Source: Trichormus sp. ATA11-4-KO1 (GTDB lineage Bacteria; Cyanobacteriota; Cyanobacteriia; Cyanobacteriales; Nostocaceae). Taken from it: DNA of 64,000 nucleotides. The DNA lies in assembly GCA_019358915.1 (NCBI GenBank), contig JAHHIM010000012.1, forward strand, positions 66,981 to 130,980. Direction: 5' to 3'. The notes under the pieces are model-generated. The model was not told where the DNA came from and did not search any database. It worked only from the letters and a program-made list of their open reading frames with translations. A program made the position numbers and the translations under genes. This document shows positions 30,100 through 57,910 of the stretch, in pieces; the stretch's first letter is position 1, and the number at the start of each line of letters is the position of its first letter.

Positions 30100-31383
30100 A
30101 TGACATACTACATTGCTCCTCGCTTTCTGCATAAGCTGTCAGTTCACATTACTAAAAATTTTTTGGATCTACCTGGAGTCCGTTTACCTCTAATTCTAGG
30201 GATTCACGGCCATAAAGGCGAAGGCAAATCATTTCAATGTGAACTAGTATTCAAACTCATGGGAGTCGAAGCAGTTCATATGTCTGCTGGCGAACTAGAA
30301 AGTCCCGATGCTGGAGATCCAGCCCGCCTGATTCGCCTGCGCTATCGAGAAGCAGCAGATTTAATTCGCACCCACGGCAAGATGGCGGTGTTAATGATTA
30401 ACGACTTGGATGCTGGTGCTGGACGGGTAGATGGAGCTACTCAGTATACAGTCAATACTCAATTAGTCAACGCTACCTTGATGAACATTGCCGATAACCC
30501 AACCAATGTACAGCTACCCGGTAGTTATGACAGTGAACCCTTACCCCGTGTACCCATTATTGTGACGGGAAATGATTTTGGTACTTTATATGCCCCACTT
30601 GTAAGAGATGGGCGGATGGATAAATTCTATTGGCAGCCAACTCGGGAAGACAAAATCGGCATTGTCAATGGCATTTTTGAGCCGGATGGGCTATCGAAGG
30701 CTCAGATTGAGCAATTGGTAGATCGGTTTGCTGGACAGTCAGTTGACTTTTTTGGGGCGTTGCGATCGCAAATTTACGATGAACAAATTCTCTCCTTCAT
30801 CCAAAAAGTTGGGTTTAATCGTGTAGGTTCCCAGGTAGTCAACAGCAAAGAAAAGCCTACCTTCCAAAAACCAGATTTCAGCCTGTCGCATTTGATTACA
30901 CAGGGAGATTTGATGGTGAAGGAACAGCAGCAGTTGGCAGAAATGCGACTAGCATCTAAGTATAATCGCGCCATTTCCGACTCAGAAATGACCAGAATTG
31001 AGAAATCGGCTCCTGCACCCACTATTTCCCCTACATCTGGAAACGGTTCTATCCCACGTGAGGAGATTCAAAAGAGTGAAACCCCTCAAGAAGCTAATGG
31101 TAAAACAGCAGAGACAAACCTCAGCGAAGAAGTGCTTCAGCAAGTAAGAGGGATGTTAGTTCAAGGCTACCGCATAGGTTTAGAACACGTAGATGAGCGT
31201 CGTTTCCGTACAGGTTCCTGGGCTAGCTGTGCGACAGTCAAGACTCAAGATGAAAATGAGGCGATCGCTGCTTTAGAAAATTGTTTGTCTGAACACAATA
31301 ATGAATATGTCCGTTTATTCGGAATTGATCCGGACGCTAAATGCCGAGTTTTAGAAACCATCATTCAACGACCAGGAAGTTAA
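30100..31383 (+). CDS. rca: Rubisco activase-like AAA+ protein (cyanobacterial Rca/ALC) with C-terminal RbcS-like (SSUL) domain
   Basis: GIHGHKGEGKS Walker A, INDLDAG, LYAPLVRDGRM; C-terminal GYRIGLEHVDERRFRTGSW...EYVRLFGID. Confidence 0.9.
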   Translation: MTYYIAPRFLHKLSVHITKNFLDLPGVRLPLILGIHGHKGEGKSFQCELVFKLMGVEAVHMSAGELESPDAGDPARLIRLRYREAADLIRTHGKMAVLMINDLDAGAGRVDGATQYTVNTQLVNATLMNIADNPTNVQLPGSYDSEPLPRVPIIVTGNDFGTLYAPLVRDGRMDKFYWQPTREDKIGIVNGIFEPDGLSKAQIEQLVDRFAGQSVDFFGALRSQIYDEQILSFIQKVGFNRVGSQVVNSKEKPTFQKPDFSLSHLITQGDLMVKEQQQLAEMRLASKYNRAISDSEMTRIEKSAPAPTISPTSGNGSIPREEIQKSETPQEANGKTAETNLSEEVLQQVRGMLVQGYRIGLEHVDERRFRTGSWASCATVKTQDENEAIAALENCLSEHNNEYVRLFGIDPDAKCRVLETIIQRPGS

Positions 31384-42378: not shown

Positions 42379-42579
42379 CTGCTGACCAAATCTTAAGTAA
42401 TTCTACTCATGTGACTATTCAAACATCTATCTCGGAAGTGAAATTTCCCCAAACAAGTTAATCTAAGATTCCGTTATACCAATTAGTCATTCGTAATTTT
42501 AAGAGGGTCAGATTTTATCTGTAGCCTGCTGCTGGAAAATTGGTACAACAGTATTATTGGCTTGTGCTGGGAGACGTAT

Positions 42580-45210
42580 ATGTCGTTTGTGCCATTACAT
42601 ATTCATAGTGACTACAGCTTGCTTGATGGAGCAAGTCAACTGCCGGAATTGGTAGATCAAGCGATCGCTCTAGGGATGAAGGCGATCGCTCTCACCGACC
42701 ACGGTGTCATGTATGGTGCTGTAGAATTGATTAAAATCTGCCGTAGTAAGAACATTAAGCCAATTATTGGCAACGAAATGTATATAATTAACGGCGATAT
42801 TGAAAAACAAGAACGCCGCCCTAAATATCATCAAGTTGTCCTAGCTAAAAATACCCAAGGTTATAAAAACTTAGTTAAATTAACTACTATATCCCACCTC
42901 CAAGGTGTCCAAGGTAAAGGTATTTTTTCTCGTCCTTGTATTAATAAAGATTTACTCAAACAATATCGTGAAGGTTTAATTGTCACAAGTGCTTGTTTAG
43001 GTGGAGAAATACCCCAAGCAATCCTCAGTGGTAGACCAGATGCCGCGCGTAAAGTTGCCAGGTGGTATAAAGAAGTATTTGGTGATGATTATTATTTAGA
43101 AATTCAAGACCACGGCTCCCAAGAAGACCGAATTGTTAATGTTGAAATCGTTAAAATTGCCCGGGAATTAGATATTAAATTCGTTGCTACTAATGACTCT
43201 CATTTTATATCTTGTTTCGATGTAGAAGCCCACGACGCTTTACTATGTATTCAAACTGGCAAACTAATTATTGAAGATAATCGAATGCGTTATAGCGGCA
43301 CAGAATATCTCAAATCCGCCGCAGAAATGCATCTGCTATTTCGTGATCATTTACCAGATGATGTGATTGCTGAAGCGGTGGCTACCACTGAAGAAGTTGC
43401 CGATAAAGTTGAGCCTTACCATATTATGGGTGAGCCGCAAATTCCTACACCTCCCATTCCTTCCGGTCATACTCCTGACACCTACGCCGAAGAAGTAGCT
43501 TGGCAAGGACTTTTAGACAGGTTAAATCGCAAATCCCGCAACGAAGTTGATCCAGTCTATAAAGAAAGATTGGAATATGAATTAAAAATGCTTCAGCAGA
43601 TGGGTTTTTCTACTTACTTTTTAGTGGTGTGGGACTACATCAAGTTTGCTAGAGATAATAACATTCCTGTGGGGCCGGGTCGTGGTTCTGCTGCTGGTTC
43701 ATTGGTTGCTTATGCAATGCGAATTACCAATATTGACCCAGTACATCATGGGTTACTATTCGAGCGATTCTTGAACCCAGAACGTAAATCAATGCCTGAT
43801 ATTGATACTGATTTTTGCATTGAAAAACGGGATAAAGTTATTGAATATGTAACAGAAAAATACGGCAAAGATAGAGTTGCTCAAATCATTACCTTTAACC
43901 GCCTAACTTCCAAAGCAGTTTTGAAAGATGTTGCCAGAGTACTGAATATTCCCTATGGGGAATCAGACAAAATGGCGAAATTAATTCCCGTAGTGCGGGG
44001 TAAACCCACCAAACTCAAAGTGATGATTTCGGATGCAACCCCAGCACCAGAATTTAAAGAAAAATATGATAATGATCCGAAAGTTCGCCATTGGGTAGAT
44101 ATGGCGATGCGAATTGAAGGAACTAACAAAACCTTTGGTGTCCACGCAGCCGGGGTAGTGATTTCTGCTGACCCTTTAGATGAAATTGTCCCGCTACAAA
44201 GGAATAATGACGGCTCAGTGATTACCCAGTATTTTATGGAAGACTTGGAATCAATGGGTTTGTTAAAAATGGATTTTCTGGGGTTACGCAACTTGACCCT
44301 GATTCAAAAAACAATTGACTTAATTGAACAAACTAGTGGCTATCGAATTGACCCAGATGAAATTACAGGTCAAGAAAGAAAAGCTCAAAAAATATTAGCT
44401 AAAGGTGAACATAGTACTCTACCCAAAGATGTGAAAAAATCCTATGAACTTTTAGAAGCTGGGGAATTAGAAGGAATATTTCAATTAGAATCTTCAGGAA
44501 TGCGTCAGATAGTACGAGATTTAAAACCTTCTAATATTGAAGATATTTCTTCCATCTTGGCATTGTATCGACCAGGCCCCTTAGATGCAGGACTGATCCC
44601 TAAGTTTATTAACCGCAAACATGGAAGAGAGACAATAGAATATCAAAGTCAGATTCTTGAACCCGTACTGAATGAAACCTATGGAATTATGGTTTATCAA
44701 GAGCAAATCATGAAAATTGCTCAAGATATGGCCGGATATTCTCTAGGACAAGCTGACTTACTGCGTCGTGCAATGGGTAAAAAGAAAGTTGCAGAAATGC
44801 AAAAGCAGCGAGAGAAATTCGTAGATGGTGCAGCAAAAAATGGCGTAAAAAAACAAGTAGCTGATGAATTATTTGAGCAAATGTTGAAGTTTGCTGAATA
44901 TTGTTTAAGCTCTGATACAGAAATTTTAACGGTAGAATATGGCTTCATTTCCATTGGAGAAATTGTCGAAAAAGCCATTGAATGTAATGTGTACAGTATT
45001 GATAGTAATGGTAATGTTTACACACAACCAATTGCACAGTGGCACAATCGCGGGCAACAAGAAGTATTTGAGTATTCTTTAGAAGATGGTTCAATTATTC
45101 GGGCAACAAAAGACCATAAGTTTATGACTACTGACGGGCAAATGTTGCCAATTGATGAGATATTTGCACAGGAATTAGATTTGTTGCAAGTTCAAGGTTT
45201 GCCGAAATAG
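42580..45210 (+). CDS. dnaE-N: DNA polymerase III alpha subunit, N-terminal part, with split-intein N fragment
   Basis: PHP domain ([11 protein letters not shown]), [15 protein letters not shown]; ends [18 protein letters not shown]...LDL..., with the intein at 44902-45207 (102 aa). Confidence 0.97.
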
Positions 45211-51617: not shown

Positions 51618-51795
51618 AAGAGAGAATCTGGAATGGGGCATTGGGCATTGGGAATAGGTAAGAATCCCCCTTGTCCCCTTGTCCCCCCATCTCCCCACTC
51701 CCTTCCGACTCCAGCGAGCGGAGATCATTAAATTTTGATAAATTTACGTTAAAGTTATCCACGAGACTGGAACGAAAATTTCAGGAATAAATTTA

Positions 51796-52410
51796 ATGCT
51801 CGAATGGATAATTAATACTATTAACTCTCTAGGCTATTGGGGAATTGCTCTACTGATGTTCGTAGAGAACCTATTTCCGCCAATTCCTTCAGAATTGATT
51901 ATGCCACTGGCAGGATTTACGGCAAGGGCAACCCCAGACAAGCTGAATATCTTTGGCGTATTTTTCGCAGGACTTTTAGGTTCTGTAGTAGGCGCACTTA
52001 TCTGGTACTATCCAGGTAAGTTTTTGAGTGAAAAGCGTTTAATAACTTTAGCCGACAAGTATGGACAGTGGTTGACTATATCCAGCCAGGATATTACAAA
52101 AGCAAAGAACTGGTTTGACAAGCAAGGTGGTAGAGCAGTATTTATTGGTCGCCTTGTCCCAGGAATCCGCACTTTGATTTCTGTTCCCGCAGGTATCAGC
52201 AATATGCACTTGCTGCCATTCATATTTTATACAACTGTGGGTAGCGCTGTCTGGGTAGGTTTGCTAACATACTCAGGGTACGTATTAGGTAGTCAGTATG
52301 AACTTGTGGAAAAGTACCTTGCCCCTGTATCTAAAATCGTGCTTGGGATTCTGGTGCTGGCATTTGTTGGCTGGTTACTCAAGCGTCAGCAAAAAAGTAC
52401 CAGGAGCTAA
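51796..52410 (+). CDS. DedA family membrane protein
   Basis: ENLFPPIPSE, GRLVPGIRTLISVPAG. Confidence 0.93.
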   Translation: MLEWIINTINSLGYWGIALLMFVENLFPPIPSELIMPLAGFTARATPDKLNIFGVFFAGLLGSVVGALIWYYPGKFLSEKRLITLADKYGQWLTISSQDITKAKNWFDKQGGRAVFIGRLVPGIRTLISVPAGISNMHLLPFIFYTTVGSAVWVGLLTYSGYVLGSQYELVEKYLAPVSKIVLGILVLAFVGWLLKRQQKSTRS

Positions 52411-52643
52411 GAAACAGCCACTTTTAGTTTGCAGGTGGGGGTTACATCTGGTCAAAATTCGCCTACACTATGCCAAATAATGCTGAATTCGCGTTGGCAA
52501 AGCCCACCGTAAAGGTATCGCCTAAACTAAACATTTGGCGTATTTCTAGCTACACTTGACGGAACCTAGAATTTCTGGTATCTCGAATGTTTGTAAGATG
52601 AGCATGATAAATTTTTACAGTTAAGTAAGGACTAGGAGCTTTC

Positions 52644-53789
52644 ATGACAGACCAACCTTCCGCCGCTACTCCAATGAATGCTGCTGCCATACCTCTAAAT
52701 AGAGTGTCAGCATCTACCCCGATTAATACTCCGACTAATAGGCCAAATGTCGGTTCTAGCAAAACGATTCTTAGTGTTGATTTAGGCAGAACTTCCACAA
52801 AGACTTGTGTGAGTCGCGAACCCAATAATGTAGTGTTCGTACCTGCCAACGTTAAGAAAATGTCCATAGAACAAGTTCGGGGCGGTGTTTTTGAAGCCCG
52901 AGCTACTGATCCCCTGATGGACTTGTGGCTGGAGTATCAAGGCAATGGATTTGCTGTTGGTCAGCTAGCAGCAGATTTTGGGGCAAATTTAGGAGTCGGT
53001 CAATCTAAAGTAGAAGATGCACTGGTAAAAGTTTTGGCAAGTGCTGGCTACTTCAAACTCAAAGACGATATCTCAGTCGTACTGGGTCTTCCTTTCCTTT
53101 CTTTAGAACAATTTGAAAAAGAAAAAGCACAGTTGACTAGCCAGGTAACTGGCCCTCATGTGTTGAACTTCCGAGGCGAATCTGTATCGCTGAACATTAA
53201 TAAAGTTTGGGTAATGCCAGAAGGCTATGGCAGTCTTTTATGGTCTGAAGCTCAACCTAAAACAGGCGGCAGAGTTCCCGATTTCACAAAAATATCAGTG
53301 GCAGTTGTCGATATTGGCCATCAAACCATTGACCTTTTAATGGTGGATAACTTCCGTTTTGCCCGAGGCGCTTCTAAAAGTGAAGATTTCGGGATGAACA
53401 AGTTTTATGAAATGGTAGCCGCCGAAATAGATGGGGCAGATAGTCAATCTTTAGCGCTGATTTCTGCTGTCAACAAACCCAAAGGTGAGCGCTTCTATCG
53501 TCCTAAAGGTGCTAGCAAGCCCACTAATCTCGATGATTTCCTTCCCAACCTCATAGAGATGTTCTCTAGAGACATTTGTAGCCGCGTGCTAGCTTGGTTG
53601 CCAGAGCGAGTCACCGATGTAATTATCACTGGTGGTGGTGGTGAATTTTTTTGGGAAGACGTTCAACGTTTACTTAAAGAAGCCCAAATTAATGCCCACT
53701 TATCCGCACCTTCTCGCCAAGCTAATGCCTTAGGGCAGTATATTTATGGAGAGGCGCAATTGTCCTCCAGTCGGGCTGCTAGGGCTTAA
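52644..53789 (+). CDS. Chromosomal ParM/StbA-family actin-like ATPase (CorM-like)
   Basis: Actin-fold motifs: phosphate-1 SVDLGRTSTK, connect-1 MPEG, phosphate-2 VVDIGHQT, adenosine IITGGGG; aggag RBS. Confidence 0.9.
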   Translation: MTDQPSAATPMNAAAIPLNRVSASTPINTPTNRPNVGSSKTILSVDLGRTSTKTCVSREPNNVVFVPANVKKMSIEQVRGGVFEARATDPLMDLWLEYQGNGFAVGQLAADFGANLGVGQSKVEDALVKVLASAGYFKLKDDISVVLGLPFLSLEQFEKEKAQLTSQVTGPHVLNFRGESVSLNINKVWVMPEGYGSLLWSEAQPKTGGRVPDFTKISVAVVDIGHQTIDLLMVDNFRFARGASKSEDFGMNKFYEMVAAEIDGADSQSLALISAVNKPKGERFYRPKGASKPTNLDDFLPNLIEMFSRDICSRVLAWLPERVTDVIITGGGGEFFWEDVQRLLKEAQINAHLSAPSRQANALGQYIYGEAQLSSSRAARA

Positions 53790-53794
53790 AACTA

Positions 53795-54280
53795 ATGTTC
53801 CAATGGTCAAAAAAGGTAGTTAAATCGGTCACGTTCAACCCAGAGGTCGCTGACGAAAGCTTGTTAGCAGTTGTGGAAAACCATTTGGAGCAACTACCTG
53901 ACAAAACTTTTAGCGACCTTTGTAAAGAAGCTCTATGGCAATCTTTATGTGTACCGGCAGCTGTAAAACCTAGTCCAAAAACAGCAGCAACAGATTCGGT
54001 TGAACAAAAAATCGATCAACTGCAACGTCAAGTGGCTGACCTAGAGGAACGTTTGTTTACTAAAGAATCTCATCGTTTGGAGGCGATAGAACGTCATATT
54101 TTGCAACTGACGCAACAAATGGCGCATCTGGCAATTGTCATCACTGAGCATCCAGTTATTCAGCCTCCAACTTCATCAGCATCAGTAAATGAAGTAGCTA
54201 ATGCTACTTATGCTGCTAGCCATCTTGAAGAGGTTGATCCCGTCATCAGCCGCCTAAGTCAGTTTCTTGATGATTTCTAA
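53795..54280 (+). CDS. ParR-like adaptor (CorR-like)
   Basis: Starts 5 nt after the ParM-like stop. N-terminal beta-helix-helix pattern, central coiled coil, C-terminal amphipathic DPVISRLSQFLDDF. Confidence 0.75.
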   Translation: MFQWSKKVVKSVTFNPEVADESLLAVVENHLEQLPDKTFSDLCKEALWQSLCVPAAVKPSPKTAATDSVEQKIDQLQRQVADLEERLFTKESHRLEAIERHILQLTQQMAHLAIVITEHPVIQPPTSSASVNEVANATYAASHLEEVDPVISRLSQFLDDF

Positions 54281-55004
54281 GAAACAATTAGGTCTGTTAG
54301 CACTTTTTGCTTTTGTTAGTGATCCTTAATAGTTTTTACTATTAAGGATTATTTAGTATGTCGAGAAATTAATTAAGTGAATATGCTGTACTGACAGTAT
54401 AGCAGGGTTACCAATTTTGGCAACACCTTACAGAATTTTCACTATTGCGATTATAGACTCATTTGGTGTAAGGACTAGGGACTGGGGAAGAAAAATTTCT
54501 GCTTTCTCCTCTGTCGCCTGATCCCCTGAATCTTTTTCCATACCGAATCTCTATGATTGTCAAGAAATGTAGATATTGCTCCCATAGTATTCAAAAAAAC
54601 TTATTCATTAAAAAATTTTTAATATATATACTTTAGGTTAAGAAGTATTAAGAAATACTTATTAAAGAATATTGCAATCCCTTGATTTAATTGTTAACGT
54701 GTGTATTGGCAACGATGCTGGTGAACGCTCTGAATTTAGGAGAGAAAAACCTATGAGCTATATCCATTCAGCCAATTGTGTGAAGTGTTGATTTTCAATC
54801 TGGAAAGCAAGGTAGAAACCCCTTGTACAAACAATGCAGATTAGTCCAGGAATATTTCGTTGCCAAAAAGACTTGTTCACCTTTTGATTTCAATAACGAT
54901 TGATTATTTGTCTTACCTTGTGCAGACAAGCGAGTAGCTTTAATTTTGTCTGTTGGCAATAGCGAAGAGAGCGGTAAGACGTAAAATATTGGAGGTTAAA
55001 ACCA

Positions 55005-55856
55005 ATGCATATTCAAGGCAAAGTTGCTCTAATTACTGGAGCTTCCCGTGGGATTGGGAAAGCGATCGCATTAGCGTTAGCGCAACGAGGGATCAAGCGG
55101 CTGATTTTGGTAGCACGCAATCGCCAAAAGTTAACTGAGGTAGCTAGTCAAATCGAGGCGATGGGTGTGGAAACTACGATCTTGGCAATTGATTTGACTC
55201 AAACTGTCGAGGTAAACATTGCTGTTGCCCAATTGTGGCGCAGTTATGGCCCGATTCATCTGCTGGTTAATTGTGCAGGTGTGGCATATCAAGCCTCATT
55301 TTTGCAGACAAAACTGCCCCAGGTGCAAGAAGAACTCTCGGTGAATTTATTGGGAATGTATAACCTCACCAGTCTCATAGCTCGACGCATGGTGAGCCAA
55401 AGGCAAGGGACAATCGTCAATGTGTCGAGTTTGATGGGGAAAGTAGCTGCACCGACGATGGCGACTTACTCAGCCACCAAGTTTGCCATCTTAGGGTTTA
55501 CCCAAGCCTTGCGTCGGGAACTAGCTGAACACAACATCCGCGTGATTGCATTACTGCCTTCTCTGACAGACACAGACATGGTGCGCGACTTAAAATTATT
55601 TCGCTGGGTGATCCCCATGACTTCTGAGGAAGTAGCGCAAGTACTTGTGAATGGATTGCAGAAAGATGCACCAGAAATTTTAGTAGGATGGCAAAGTCAT
55701 TTGGCTGTGTGGTGTCAACGTTTGGCCCCTTGGTTGCTAGAGATAGTTTTACAAATCGCCACTCCGCCAGCTTGGAAAACACTACAGCCTATGGAAAAAC
55801 AAAGTTTTATGACGAGAATTTATCGTTTTAGCGATTTGTTATGGTCAAGAACATGA
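55005..55856 (+). CDS. Short-chain dehydrogenase/reductase
   Basis: TGASRGIG, NCAG, YSATK; ggagg RBS. Confidence 0.93.
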   Translation: MHIQGKVALITGASRGIGKAIALALAQRGIKRLILVARNRQKLTEVASQIEAMGVETTILAIDLTQTVEVNIAVAQLWRSYGPIHLLVNCAGVAYQASFLQTKLPQVQEELSVNLLGMYNLTSLIARRMVSQRQGTIVNVSSLMGKVAAPTMATYSATKFAILGFTQALRRELAEHNIRVIALLPSLTDTDMVRDLKLFRWVIPMTSEEVAQVLVNGLQKDAPEILVGWQSHLAVWCQRLAPWLLEIVLQIATPPAWKTLQPMEKQSFMTRIYRFSDLLWSRT

Positions 55857-55993: not shown

Positions 55994-56024
55994 ACTCAGC
56001 ACTCAGCACTCAGCACTCAGCACT
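55994..56024. repeat. STRR heptamer array overlapping the menD 3' end
   Basis: actcag(cactcag)3cact; the menD stop codon lies inside it. Confidence 0.9.
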
Positions 56025-57757
56025 GAATAAGGGGCAAACTTGCTTAAATTCTCCTGTCGCCACTTGGCATCGGCTTGGCGATTTGTCTGCAACTCTAAAA
56101 CTCGAATTCCTTGACTTGGTAGAGGGTTTAATCGTTGCTGTAGCTGCTCCCAGGAACTAATCAATTCATGCTGCACATTGTAGGTAGCGCATAACTGAGC
56201 AAAATCAATATCTTGTGGAGTGGCAAAAAATTCTTCAAAGGGTGGGTCGAATTTAGCTATGGGTAACATTTCAAAAATTCCCCCACCATTGTTGTTAATT
56301 AATACAATCGTCAGATGTCCAACAAACTTATTGCGGATTAAAAAACCATTAGTATCGTGCAACAAAGCTAAATCGCCAGTCAACATCACACTACTTTGAT
56401 GGCGATGAGCAATTCCCAAAGCCGTGGCTAACGTGCCATCAATACCATTTGCACCCCGGTTAAAATACGATCGCACTGCTAAATTATTCGGTTTCCAGAA
56501 AAATTCCACATCTCGCACAGGCATACTGTTGGCAATAAATAATGGTGTTTTTGGTGGTAACACCTGAGAAAGTAACCAAGCTGCTTTGCCTTCAAATAAC
56601 TCCTCCATTTTTCCCATAGTTTGGTCAACAGCTAACCTGACTTGAGCTTCAGCAATAGACCAAAGTTGCAGATACACAGAATCTGCTCTCCCCTGCGCTT
56701 CTGCCAATTGTTCTATCCCCATCCGCAAATGAGTTGTTCTCCCATGCAGGGGATCAAGATTTTGATTGCTGTGATCAATTATCCAGCGTCGCGGTTGAGT
56801 TGTATCTATCCAGGTACGCAGTTCTTTACTTGTAGGCATTTCACCCACCTGAATCACCATTTCGGGTGTTAGCTGCTTTGCTAGTGATTGATGCCGCAAA
56901 ATCAGGTCATAAGTGGAAATTAAATAAGGGTTGAGTTCAGCATGATTTCTCACTGGCGAGAGTCCCTCTGCCAATACAGGCCATTTGAGCGTTTGGGCTA
57001 GTTGTGCGATCGCCTGACAATACTTTTCTGGTTGCTGGGGTTGGGCAACGCCAGCAATAATTATGCCGCGATCGCACTGTTGCCATTCTTGGGGAATCGG
57101 AAATCGGGAATCAGCAATCGGGAATGGGGTAGTATTGGTGATCCCGGCGAAGAAGTCTTCTGGATGAAATTGTGACTGTAAATAGCTCAAATCAATGCCA
57201 TCGGGGATAGGTGCAAGGGGATCACGAAAGGGAATATTTAAATGCACTGGCCCTTGTGTTGGTGTTTGACAGCGTTCCCACCCATGAATTATCATTTGCC
57301 GTAGATAAGCTAGCATTCCCATGTCTGGAGCAGGTAAGGCTAACTCTGCTTGCCAATTTGGGTAATTACCATATAATTTAACCTGGTCTATGGTTTGTCC
57401 AGAGTGGCAATCTCTTAATTCTGGCGGGCGATCGCTAGTTAAAACCAAAAGTGGGACACGACTTTCTCTAGCTTCTATAATTGCCGGGTAAAAATTCGCT
57501 CCTGCTGTTCCAGAAGTACAAATAAGTACTACAGGAAGTCCTGTGGCTTTAGCTCTTCCCAAGGCAAAGAAGGCGGCTGAGCGCTCATCGAGAATAGAAA
57601 TCGCTTCTATATCAGGTACTTGTTGGGCAAATGCGACGACTAAAGGTGTAGAGCGGGAACCAGGACAAATGACAACGCAATTTAATCCCAAATACTTTAG
57701 TGTTTCCGTCAAGACATAAGCCCAAAATTGATTAAGATTTCTATAGGCGATCGGCAT
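56003..57757 (-). CDS. menD: SEPHCHC synthase MenD
   Basis: CPGSRSTPL, DERSAAFFALG, TSGTA, NRGANGIDG, GDLALLHD, NNNGGGIF; ATG 57757 or 57769. Confidence 0.96.
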   Translation of the reverse strand: MPIAYRNLNQFWAYVLTETLKYLGLNCVVICPGSRSTPLVVAFAQQVPDIEAISILDERSAAFFALGRAKATGLPVVLICTSGTAGANFYPAIIEARESRVPLLVLTSDRPPELRDCHSGQTIDQVKLYGNYPNWQAELALPAPDMGMLAYLRQMIIHGWERCQTPTQGPVHLNIPFRDPLAPIPDGIDLSYLQSQFHPEDFFAGITNTTPFPIADSRFPIPQEWQQCDRGIIIAGVAQPQQPEKYCQAIAQLAQTLKWPVLAEGLSPVRNHAELNPYLISTYDLILRHQSLAKQLTPEMVIQVGEMPTSKELRTWIDTTQPRRWIIDHSNQNLDPLHGRTTHLRMGIEQLAEAQGRADSVYLQLWSIAEAQVRLAVDQTMGKMEELFEGKAAWLLSQVLPPKTPLFIANSMPVRDVEFFWKPNNLAVRSYFNRGANGIDGTLATALGIAHRHQSSVMLTGDLALLHDTNGFLIRNKFVGHLTIVLINNNGGGIFEMLPIAKFDPPFEEFFATPQDIDFAQLCATYNVQHELISSWEQLQQRLNPLPSQGIRVLELQTNRQADAKWRQENLSKFAPYSVLSAEC

Positions 57758-57910
57758 TAAATCATACATTTTAGATTTTATATAGGTAAATTTAATTTAA
57801 AATCCCTCTGGGAAAGTTTGGTAAAACAAAAACCGATACTGTCGCCCGAGTTATCGGCAAGAGTATATTCCTGATAACTCGCTCCACTTTTCGCAAAATG
57901 TCAAATTCTT

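Follow-up and report, generated by a model that had tools for sequence, protein, structure and literature searches.

Two adjoining genes that resemble the plasmid partition pair ParM-ParR lie here among housekeeping genes, which raises the question of whether their products segregate DNA or form a membrane-tethered cytoskeleton that gives the cell its shape. We read the locus as the corMR (fcmBC) operon of a heterocyst-forming cyanobacterium (Nostocales), present in one copy, inherited vertically and encoding a membrane-bound cell-shape cytoskeleton, with a probability of roughly 0.96. The first gene, corM (fcmB; 52644..53789, plus strand), encodes a ParM-derived actin-like ATPase of 381 aa, recognised by its matches to PDB 9RMI, NF052678 and Pfam, and the second, corR (fcmC; 53795..54280, plus strand), encodes a ParR-derived membrane adaptor of 161 aa, recognised by NF052682 and by its identity to BAB76789.1. 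By their ORF coordinates the two lie 5 nt apart on the same strand, as a preliminary description of this DNA had stated for an actin-fold ATPase and a small adaptor behind it. A Shine-Dalgarno-like AGGAG site (52634..52638, plus strand), which was read from the sequence and has a putative function, is located 5 nt 5' of the corM ATG.

Identity and genomic setting of corMR

The corMR pair of this genome is an ordinary close copy of a published system, real and already known, because it was published twice in 2025 and is covered by a cryo-EM structure and NCBIfam models. CorM and CorR have been described in Anabaena (Nostoc) sp. PCC 7120 (Springstein et al., bioRxiv 10.1101/2025.06.27.661541; PDB 9RMI), and members of the same family, under the second name FcmB and FcmC, in Nostoc punctiforme (Nguyen et al., mSphere 2025, PMC12645912; Npun_R4472/R4471), which shares the gene order. 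CorM aligns with the Anabaena protein in 9RMI from end to end (E 2e-236), and 355 of 381 positions agree by count from the alignment (93% identity). It passes the NF052678 morpho_FcmB equivalog model at 751.6 bits (cut-off 300), while CorR passes NF052682 morpho_FcmC at 226.7 bits (cut-off 90); both equivalog cut-offs are exceeded more than two-fold. The CorMR identity that had been tentatively named in the preliminary description is confirmed by these matches. Pfam assigned ALP_N (E 5e-18) and MreB-like_C to CorM, and the plasmid ParM model PRK13917 gave only 55 bits against its cut-off of 417. The differences from 9RMI amount to 26 substitutions and a 2-residue indel, of which five substitutions and the indel fall within the first 41 residues, and CorM is 90% identical at an N. 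punctiforme NIES-2108 locus. CorR is identical to BAB76789.1 at 119 of 162 positions (73%), including all of residues 1-29; we infer from its length of 162 aa and its GenBank accession that BAB76789.1 is the CorR of Anabaena PCC 7120. No Pfam family was assigned to CorR above cut-off, where coiled-coil matches were weak and below it, and a search of its sequence against the PDB returned only coiled-coil noise (E>=0.24).

The window, that is, the whole 64-kb stretch of DNA analysed, carries the core genes secA, aspS, prfC, tgt, dnaE, pyrE, queC, folB, hemC and glgA. A DedA/VTT protein gene (51796-52410, Pfam) is located 5' of corM, and the ORF scan of the window also placed a Gfo/Idh/MocA oxidoreductase gene on this upstream side. 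An SDR gene (55005-55856, Pfam) and menD (56003-57769, NCBIfam) are found on the downstream side of corR, so the dedA, SDR and menD neighbours named earlier were all identified. Families of rep, integrase and transposase were sought by Pfam in 35 window ORFs (E<=1e-8; seven of the 35 without a match) and in five locus ORFs, and by NCBIfam in ten window ORFs (E<=1e-25; one of the ten without a match), and none was detected, in agreement with the earlier statement that a rep gene and an integrase are absent. Because the genome is assembled as a 73-contig draft, the chromosomal status of corMR rests on gene content. Between 52400 and 54500, predicted promoters (4 vs 3.9) and terminators (2 vs 2.3) occur at chance level, and no promoter is claimed for corMR for this reason.

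The FcmB cut-off was exceeded in 36 of 36 genomes of the same family and in none of 14 controls; among 24 genomes that belong to the GTDB order but to other families, four passed it. Synteny was compared in the best 80 of 341 confirmed loci, 68 of them with full flanks, which are close relatives (88-99%) and non-independent. In all 80, corR is located 3' of corM, with a gap of 5 nt in 78 and 8 nt in two, and Gfo/Idh (77 loci), dedA (75) and queC (73) are frequently nearby while SDR (11) and menD (1) are rare, and therefore the upstream side of corMR is the conserved one. The synteny check proposed earlier thus shows an adjacent pair with its upstream neighbours kept, and a chromosomal, vertically inherited location is supported by the core genes in the window, the occurrence in every same-family genome and the conserved neighbours. 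In a quick tree of 48 hand-picked rows (SH-aLRT without bootstrap), CorM groups with the canonical Nostocales copies.

That the locus might instead be an integrated plasmid segment, carrying a ParMRC partition cassette or the remnant of one, could be thought from the database name of the adaptor, 'plasmid segregation centromere-binding protein ParR', and from the descent of the CorM/FcmB family from plasmid ParM reported in bioRxiv 10.1101/2025.06.27.661541 and PMC12645912. This is extremely unlikely in view of the presence of corM throughout the sampled members of the family with fixed synteny, a flat GC of ~0.44 at corMR that is the same as in the flanks, the lack of mobile genes among the scanned window ORFs and the low score of the plasmid ParM model. 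A patchily distributed plasmid segment was also what the preliminary description had said would count against its reading, and within the family sampled the distribution is universal. The genome has a single corM, and the only other ParM-like gene, 26% identical, sits elsewhere, on the 12-kb contig C68. There, a 374-aa ParM-like ATPase and a 148-aa partner with an acidic tail are encoded at L038:4208-5762(-), adjoining a TrwC relaxase/helicase and ArdA, and the partner lacks a cationic helix at its N terminus; this is likely the plasmid-type partition pair of the genome. The C68 ParM was unusable as an outgroup in the tree (branch length ~10). Repeating ORF fragments on the same contig (L038:197-987) suggest a putative CRISPR-like array.

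Several other features of the window were observed. Short tandem repeats with units of 7-8 nt were found by TRF between genes, ACTCAGC x4.4 at 55994-56024, GGGCATT x2.4 at 51636-51652 and CCCCTTGT x2.5 at 51667-51686; such repeats are common in heterocystous cyanobacteria, and those here are unrelated to corMR. The dnaE ORF (42562-45210, plus strand) encodes ~780 polymerase residues followed by a tail of ~100 aa that begins with Cys, which we take to be a candidate for the N-terminal half of the cyanobacterial split-intein DnaE. As well, the ORF at 30100-31383 (plus strand) encodes an AAA protein similar to Rubisco activase, whose C terminus carries an RbcS-like domain (Pfam).

CorM features and the two ends of CorR

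CorM begins with a low-complexity extension of about 40 residues (~1-40; 52644..52763, plus strand), defined here by composition, with its disorder and its function as an IDR assigned from the orthologue. An extension of ~38 aa rich in Pro and Asn had been claimed, and Pro plus Asn indeed make up 29% of residues 1-38 vs 8.5% of the remainder, though Ala, Ser and Thr are equally abundant there. The extension measures ~40-44 residues in all 80 related loci of the synteny sample. The phosphate-1 motif VDLGRT, with D46 at 52779..52781 (plus strand), is identical in 9RMI, and its role is presumably that known from the actin/ParM fold. The likely catalytic glutamate, E193 in VMPEG (53220..53222, plus strand), is conserved in all 80 canonical loci and is, we assume, the equivalent of ParM E148. 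K209 and G210 agree with the numbering in bioRxiv 10.1101/2025.06.27.661541, according to which the N-terminal IDR of Anabaena CorM tunes, and slows, filament growth.

The structure of CorR was predicted as an AlphaFold2 monomer of low confidence (pLDDT 64, pTM 0.26), in which helices are modelled at residues 21-33, 39-51, 63-117 and 149-160. The first two belong to a ribbon-helix-helix (RHH)-like region at about residues 8-52 (53816..53950, plus strand), where the monomer model lacks the strand and Foldseek gave no match at E<=0.001; a PcfF row at E 8, presumably an RHH protein, was too weak to be counted. The long, coiled-coil-like helix 63-117 (H5a; 53981..54145, plus strand) is predicted with pLDDT ~82-89 at residues 71-110, and the C-terminal helix H5b would be set apart from it by a disordered linker, the low-confidence residues 119-145 of the model, which is variable relative to the Anabaena orthologue in the alignment. 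The predicted helix layout agrees with the description in the text of bioRxiv 10.1101/2025.06.27.661541, from which the RHH assignment of the N-terminal domain is also taken.

Which end of CorR holds the membrane is where our reading departs from the preliminary description, in which the C-terminal helix was a membrane-targeting sequence of the MinD/FtsA type. Residues 149-161 (PVISRLSQFLDDF; 54239..54277, plus strand) form the acidic amphipathic H5b (moment 0.64-0.73), predicted helical over 149-160, and the last 11 residues of the terminal DPVISRLSQFLDDF have a hydrophobic moment of 0.73, the top value in CorR. The sequence DPVISRLSQFLDDF is nearly invariant, being found at the C terminus in 84 of 120 homologues. 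The amphipathic character that had been noticed is thus real. However, MinD/FtsA-type C-terminal targeting helices are basic, while this helix has a net charge of -1 to -4 by window (-2 for DPVISRLSQFLDDF) vs +4 for the MinD tail of the same genome, and amphipathicity is equally expected of a protein-binding helix. A cationic amphipathic segment at the other end, MFQWSKKVVK (residues 1-10; 53795..53824, plus strand; net +3, moment 0.59), had been overlooked. MFQWSKKVVKS opens CorR in 114 of 120 homologues, and the first 11 residues are identical in 78 of the 80 loci. Over 18 residues, the lipid-binding index of the CorR N terminus is 0.96, which is only intermediate by the thresholds of HeliQuest. 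Residues 1-10 are identical to those of the Anabaena orthologue, and 149-161 match orthologue residues 150-162 at 12 of 13 positions.

The two ends have been separated by deletion in Anabaena, according to bioRxiv 10.1101/2025.06.27.661541: CorR without residues 1-10 no longer binds vesicles, CorR without 150-162 still associates with lipid but neither recruits CorM nor interacts in the two-hybrid assay, and either deletion gives a null shape phenotype. The C-terminal helix is therefore dispensable for membrane association in the orthologue, an outcome that the preliminary description had itself named as telling against its proposal. A cell-shape role with the C-terminal helix as membrane anchor is thus very unlikely, and we regard residues 1-10 as the anchor and 149-161 as the CorM-binding peptide. 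The model predicts residues 1-14 of CorR as disordered, and a model without a helix at the N-terminal anchor is also reported in bioRxiv 10.1101/2025.06.27.661541. The term 'amphipathic' is absent from the available text of PMC12645912, in which the membrane anchor is unmapped.

DNA binding, MinC and cell shape

A parC-like array at corMR had been reported as lacking, and the repeat search, TRF and comparison of k-mers with shuffled sequence found nothing above chance in the two flanks. In 52411-52643, the best k-mer family has 2-3 copies, equalled by 38-100 of 100 shuffles, and in 54281-55004 it has 3-7 copies, equalled by 2-10 of 20; TRF gave no array in either flank. Nearest to an array are seven AT-rich 10-mers with two mismatches in the 3' flank, a number that 2 of 20 shuffles attained. 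The intergenic stretch 54300-54700, 5' of the SDR gene, is AT-rich and contains imperfect AT-rich repeats of 10-20 nt, and these were dropped as a real array because their count was reached by 2 of 20 shuffles. According to bioRxiv 10.1101/2025.06.27.661541, Anabaena CorR shifted neither the corMR promoter nor E. coli parC in EMSA, and mutants of two species showed normally distributed DAPI signal (bioRxiv 10.1101/2025.06.27.661541, PMC12645912).

Similar to plasmid ParMRC, for example that of E. coli R1, corMR has an actin-fold ATPase gene followed by a gene for a small adaptor of the RHH type, which contacts the ATPase through its C-terminal helix. Unlike ParMRC, there is no parC array in the flanks and the plasmid ParM model scores 55 vs 417; moreover, the orthologous adaptor binds membrane instead of DNA and the filament is antiparallel rather than parallel (bioRxiv 10.1101/2025.06.27.661541). 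CorR might nevertheless play a dual role, anchoring CorM while its RHH domain still binds a DNA site unlinked to corMR; by switching between the membrane and this chromosomal site, it may attach copies of the polyploid chromosome to the cortical array and so link them with the cytoskeleton that shapes the cell. The membrane helix 1-10 lies directly next to the strand predicted to read DNA in the strongly conserved RHH domain, residues 1-54 hold ~30 invariant positions among 32 aligned homologues, and the published EMSAs covered two probes only. Set against this are the failure of either probe to shift, the normal DAPI distribution, the lack of a repeat array in the flanks, and the fact that dimerisation or binding of MinC/Cdv3 can account for the conservation of the RHH region. 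We consider the dual role very unlikely.

A role as a membrane-tethered shape cytoskeleton rather than in DNA segregation, as first proposed, is supported by orthology to CorMR/FcmBC and by the experiments published for the orthologues. Anabaena CorM forms antiparallel, dynamically unstable double filaments, which are cortical and run across the long axis of the cell (bioRxiv 10.1101/2025.06.27.661541), and N. punctiforme mutants lose their rod shape, with rounder cells, normal nucleoids and less lateral wall labelling, while FcmC is required to keep FcmB at the membrane (PMC12645912). Like MreB, the CorM orthologue makes cortical antiparallel actin-like filaments required for rod shape, but it has a separate ancestry, needs an adaptor to reach the membrane and shows dynamic instability; mreB is present in this genome as a separate gene on contig C2.

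The regulator of the system was located on contig C15, where minC (L001:769-1848(+)) is followed by MinD- and MinE-like ORFs in a minCDE-like cluster. It encodes 359 aa from its ATG, that is, a long MinC (>300 aa), with an N-terminal ELNSVLLYL helix predicted to bind CorM. Residues S60 and L65 align with S50 and L55 and are invariant in 9 of 9 aligned MinCs. In the account of bioRxiv 10.1101/2025.06.27.661541, S50 and L55 are required for CorM depolymerisation, and MinC is a competitor of CorR for its pocket on CorM, by which poles and septum are kept free of filaments. The orthology, the conserved mapped elements, the chromosomal synteny and the long MinC with its S/L helix are all observed in this genome. 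The likeness to Anabaena CorMR extends from 93% identity in CorM and 73% in CorR, with an identical N-terminal anchor and 12 of 13 residues in the C-terminal helix, to a two-gene chromosomal operon, an N-terminal IDR and the lack of parC; what differs is ordinary drift only, and the sequence comparison found no functional difference.

Membrane binding, filament form, MinC control and the shape phenotype would carry over from PCC 7120 and N. punctiforme by orthology. CorR dimers would dock on the cytosolic face of the cytoplasmic membrane via the cationic N-terminal amphipathic helix and would capture CorM with the acidic C-terminal helix. CorM-ATP would then polymerise into antiparallel, dynamically unstable double filaments around the cell, across its long axis, with the N-terminal IDR slowing their growth, and the long MinC would compete for the CorR pocket on CorM and so clear filaments from the poles and the division site. 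The array would maintain the barrel or rod shape of the cells, probably because it guides wall synthesis along their sides, although the link of CorM to peptidoglycan synthesis is an inferred one in both papers too.

CorM fusions in other Nostocales

Finally, extra CorM copies were observed in other Nostocales, in which an N-terminal hydrophobic segment and a coiled-coil-like module are fused ahead of the CorM core. They include proteins of 509 aa (L033:3832-5361(-), genome G034, contig C2 of that assembly) and 627 aa (L034:3033-4916(-), genome G028, contig C74), as well as shorter forms from genomes G016 and G006 (L035:3223-4260(+) and L036:3768-4622(-)). The CorM core of the 509- and 627-aa fusions is 72-80% identical to CorM, and a coiled-coil stretch is predicted in them. 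In most fusion N-terminal segments, the best 19-residue Kyte-Doolittle mean is ~1.9-2.5. No corR was found in the stretches fetched around the fused copies. The position of E193 is altered in 10 of 27 aligning fused CorM vs none of 80 canonical copies. In the quick tree of 48 hand-picked rows, 20 fused rows are nested in the CorM clade of Nostocales, where their branches are longer, and strongly supported branches force at least four changes between the fused and canonical labels, so that the fused copies have several apparent origins.

With the N-terminal 165 residues as query, 49 module proteins were obtained: in 28 the module runs on into a CorM core, PF00350 is present in 12 and PF05419 in three, and six have none of these. 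Several of the PF00350 proteins are named as dynamin family, and one of the three with PF05419, which we take to be GUN4, also has an FtsZ-like domain below the ftsZ cut-off. One module match is labelled plasmid, and tblastn gave no match for the module in this genome. A conserved ORF of 336 aa, with no Pfam match, is located directly 5' of the fused CorM in three of the four fusion loci inspected (L033:5381-6391(-), L036:4642-5652(-) and L035:2249-3263(+, two frames)). It has a Gly/Ala-rich hydrophobic C-terminal half and a motif that we presume to be a putative HNH, and no match to it was found in this genome.

Under the terms used, fused CorM proteins were found neither in the main text of either paper nor in a narrow literature search. 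These proteins may form filaments that anchor themselves, act as decoys or be chimeras in decay, and self-anchored fusions are probably more novel than the dual-role reading of CorR. For corMR itself, the analysis means that a repurposed partition system is recognisable from raw sequence alone, with the roles of the two CorR helices now corrected. If functional, the CorM fusions would be adaptor-free, self-anchored actin filaments, and their N-terminal module would serve as an anchor that can be reused across actin-, tubulin- and dynamin-like proteins.
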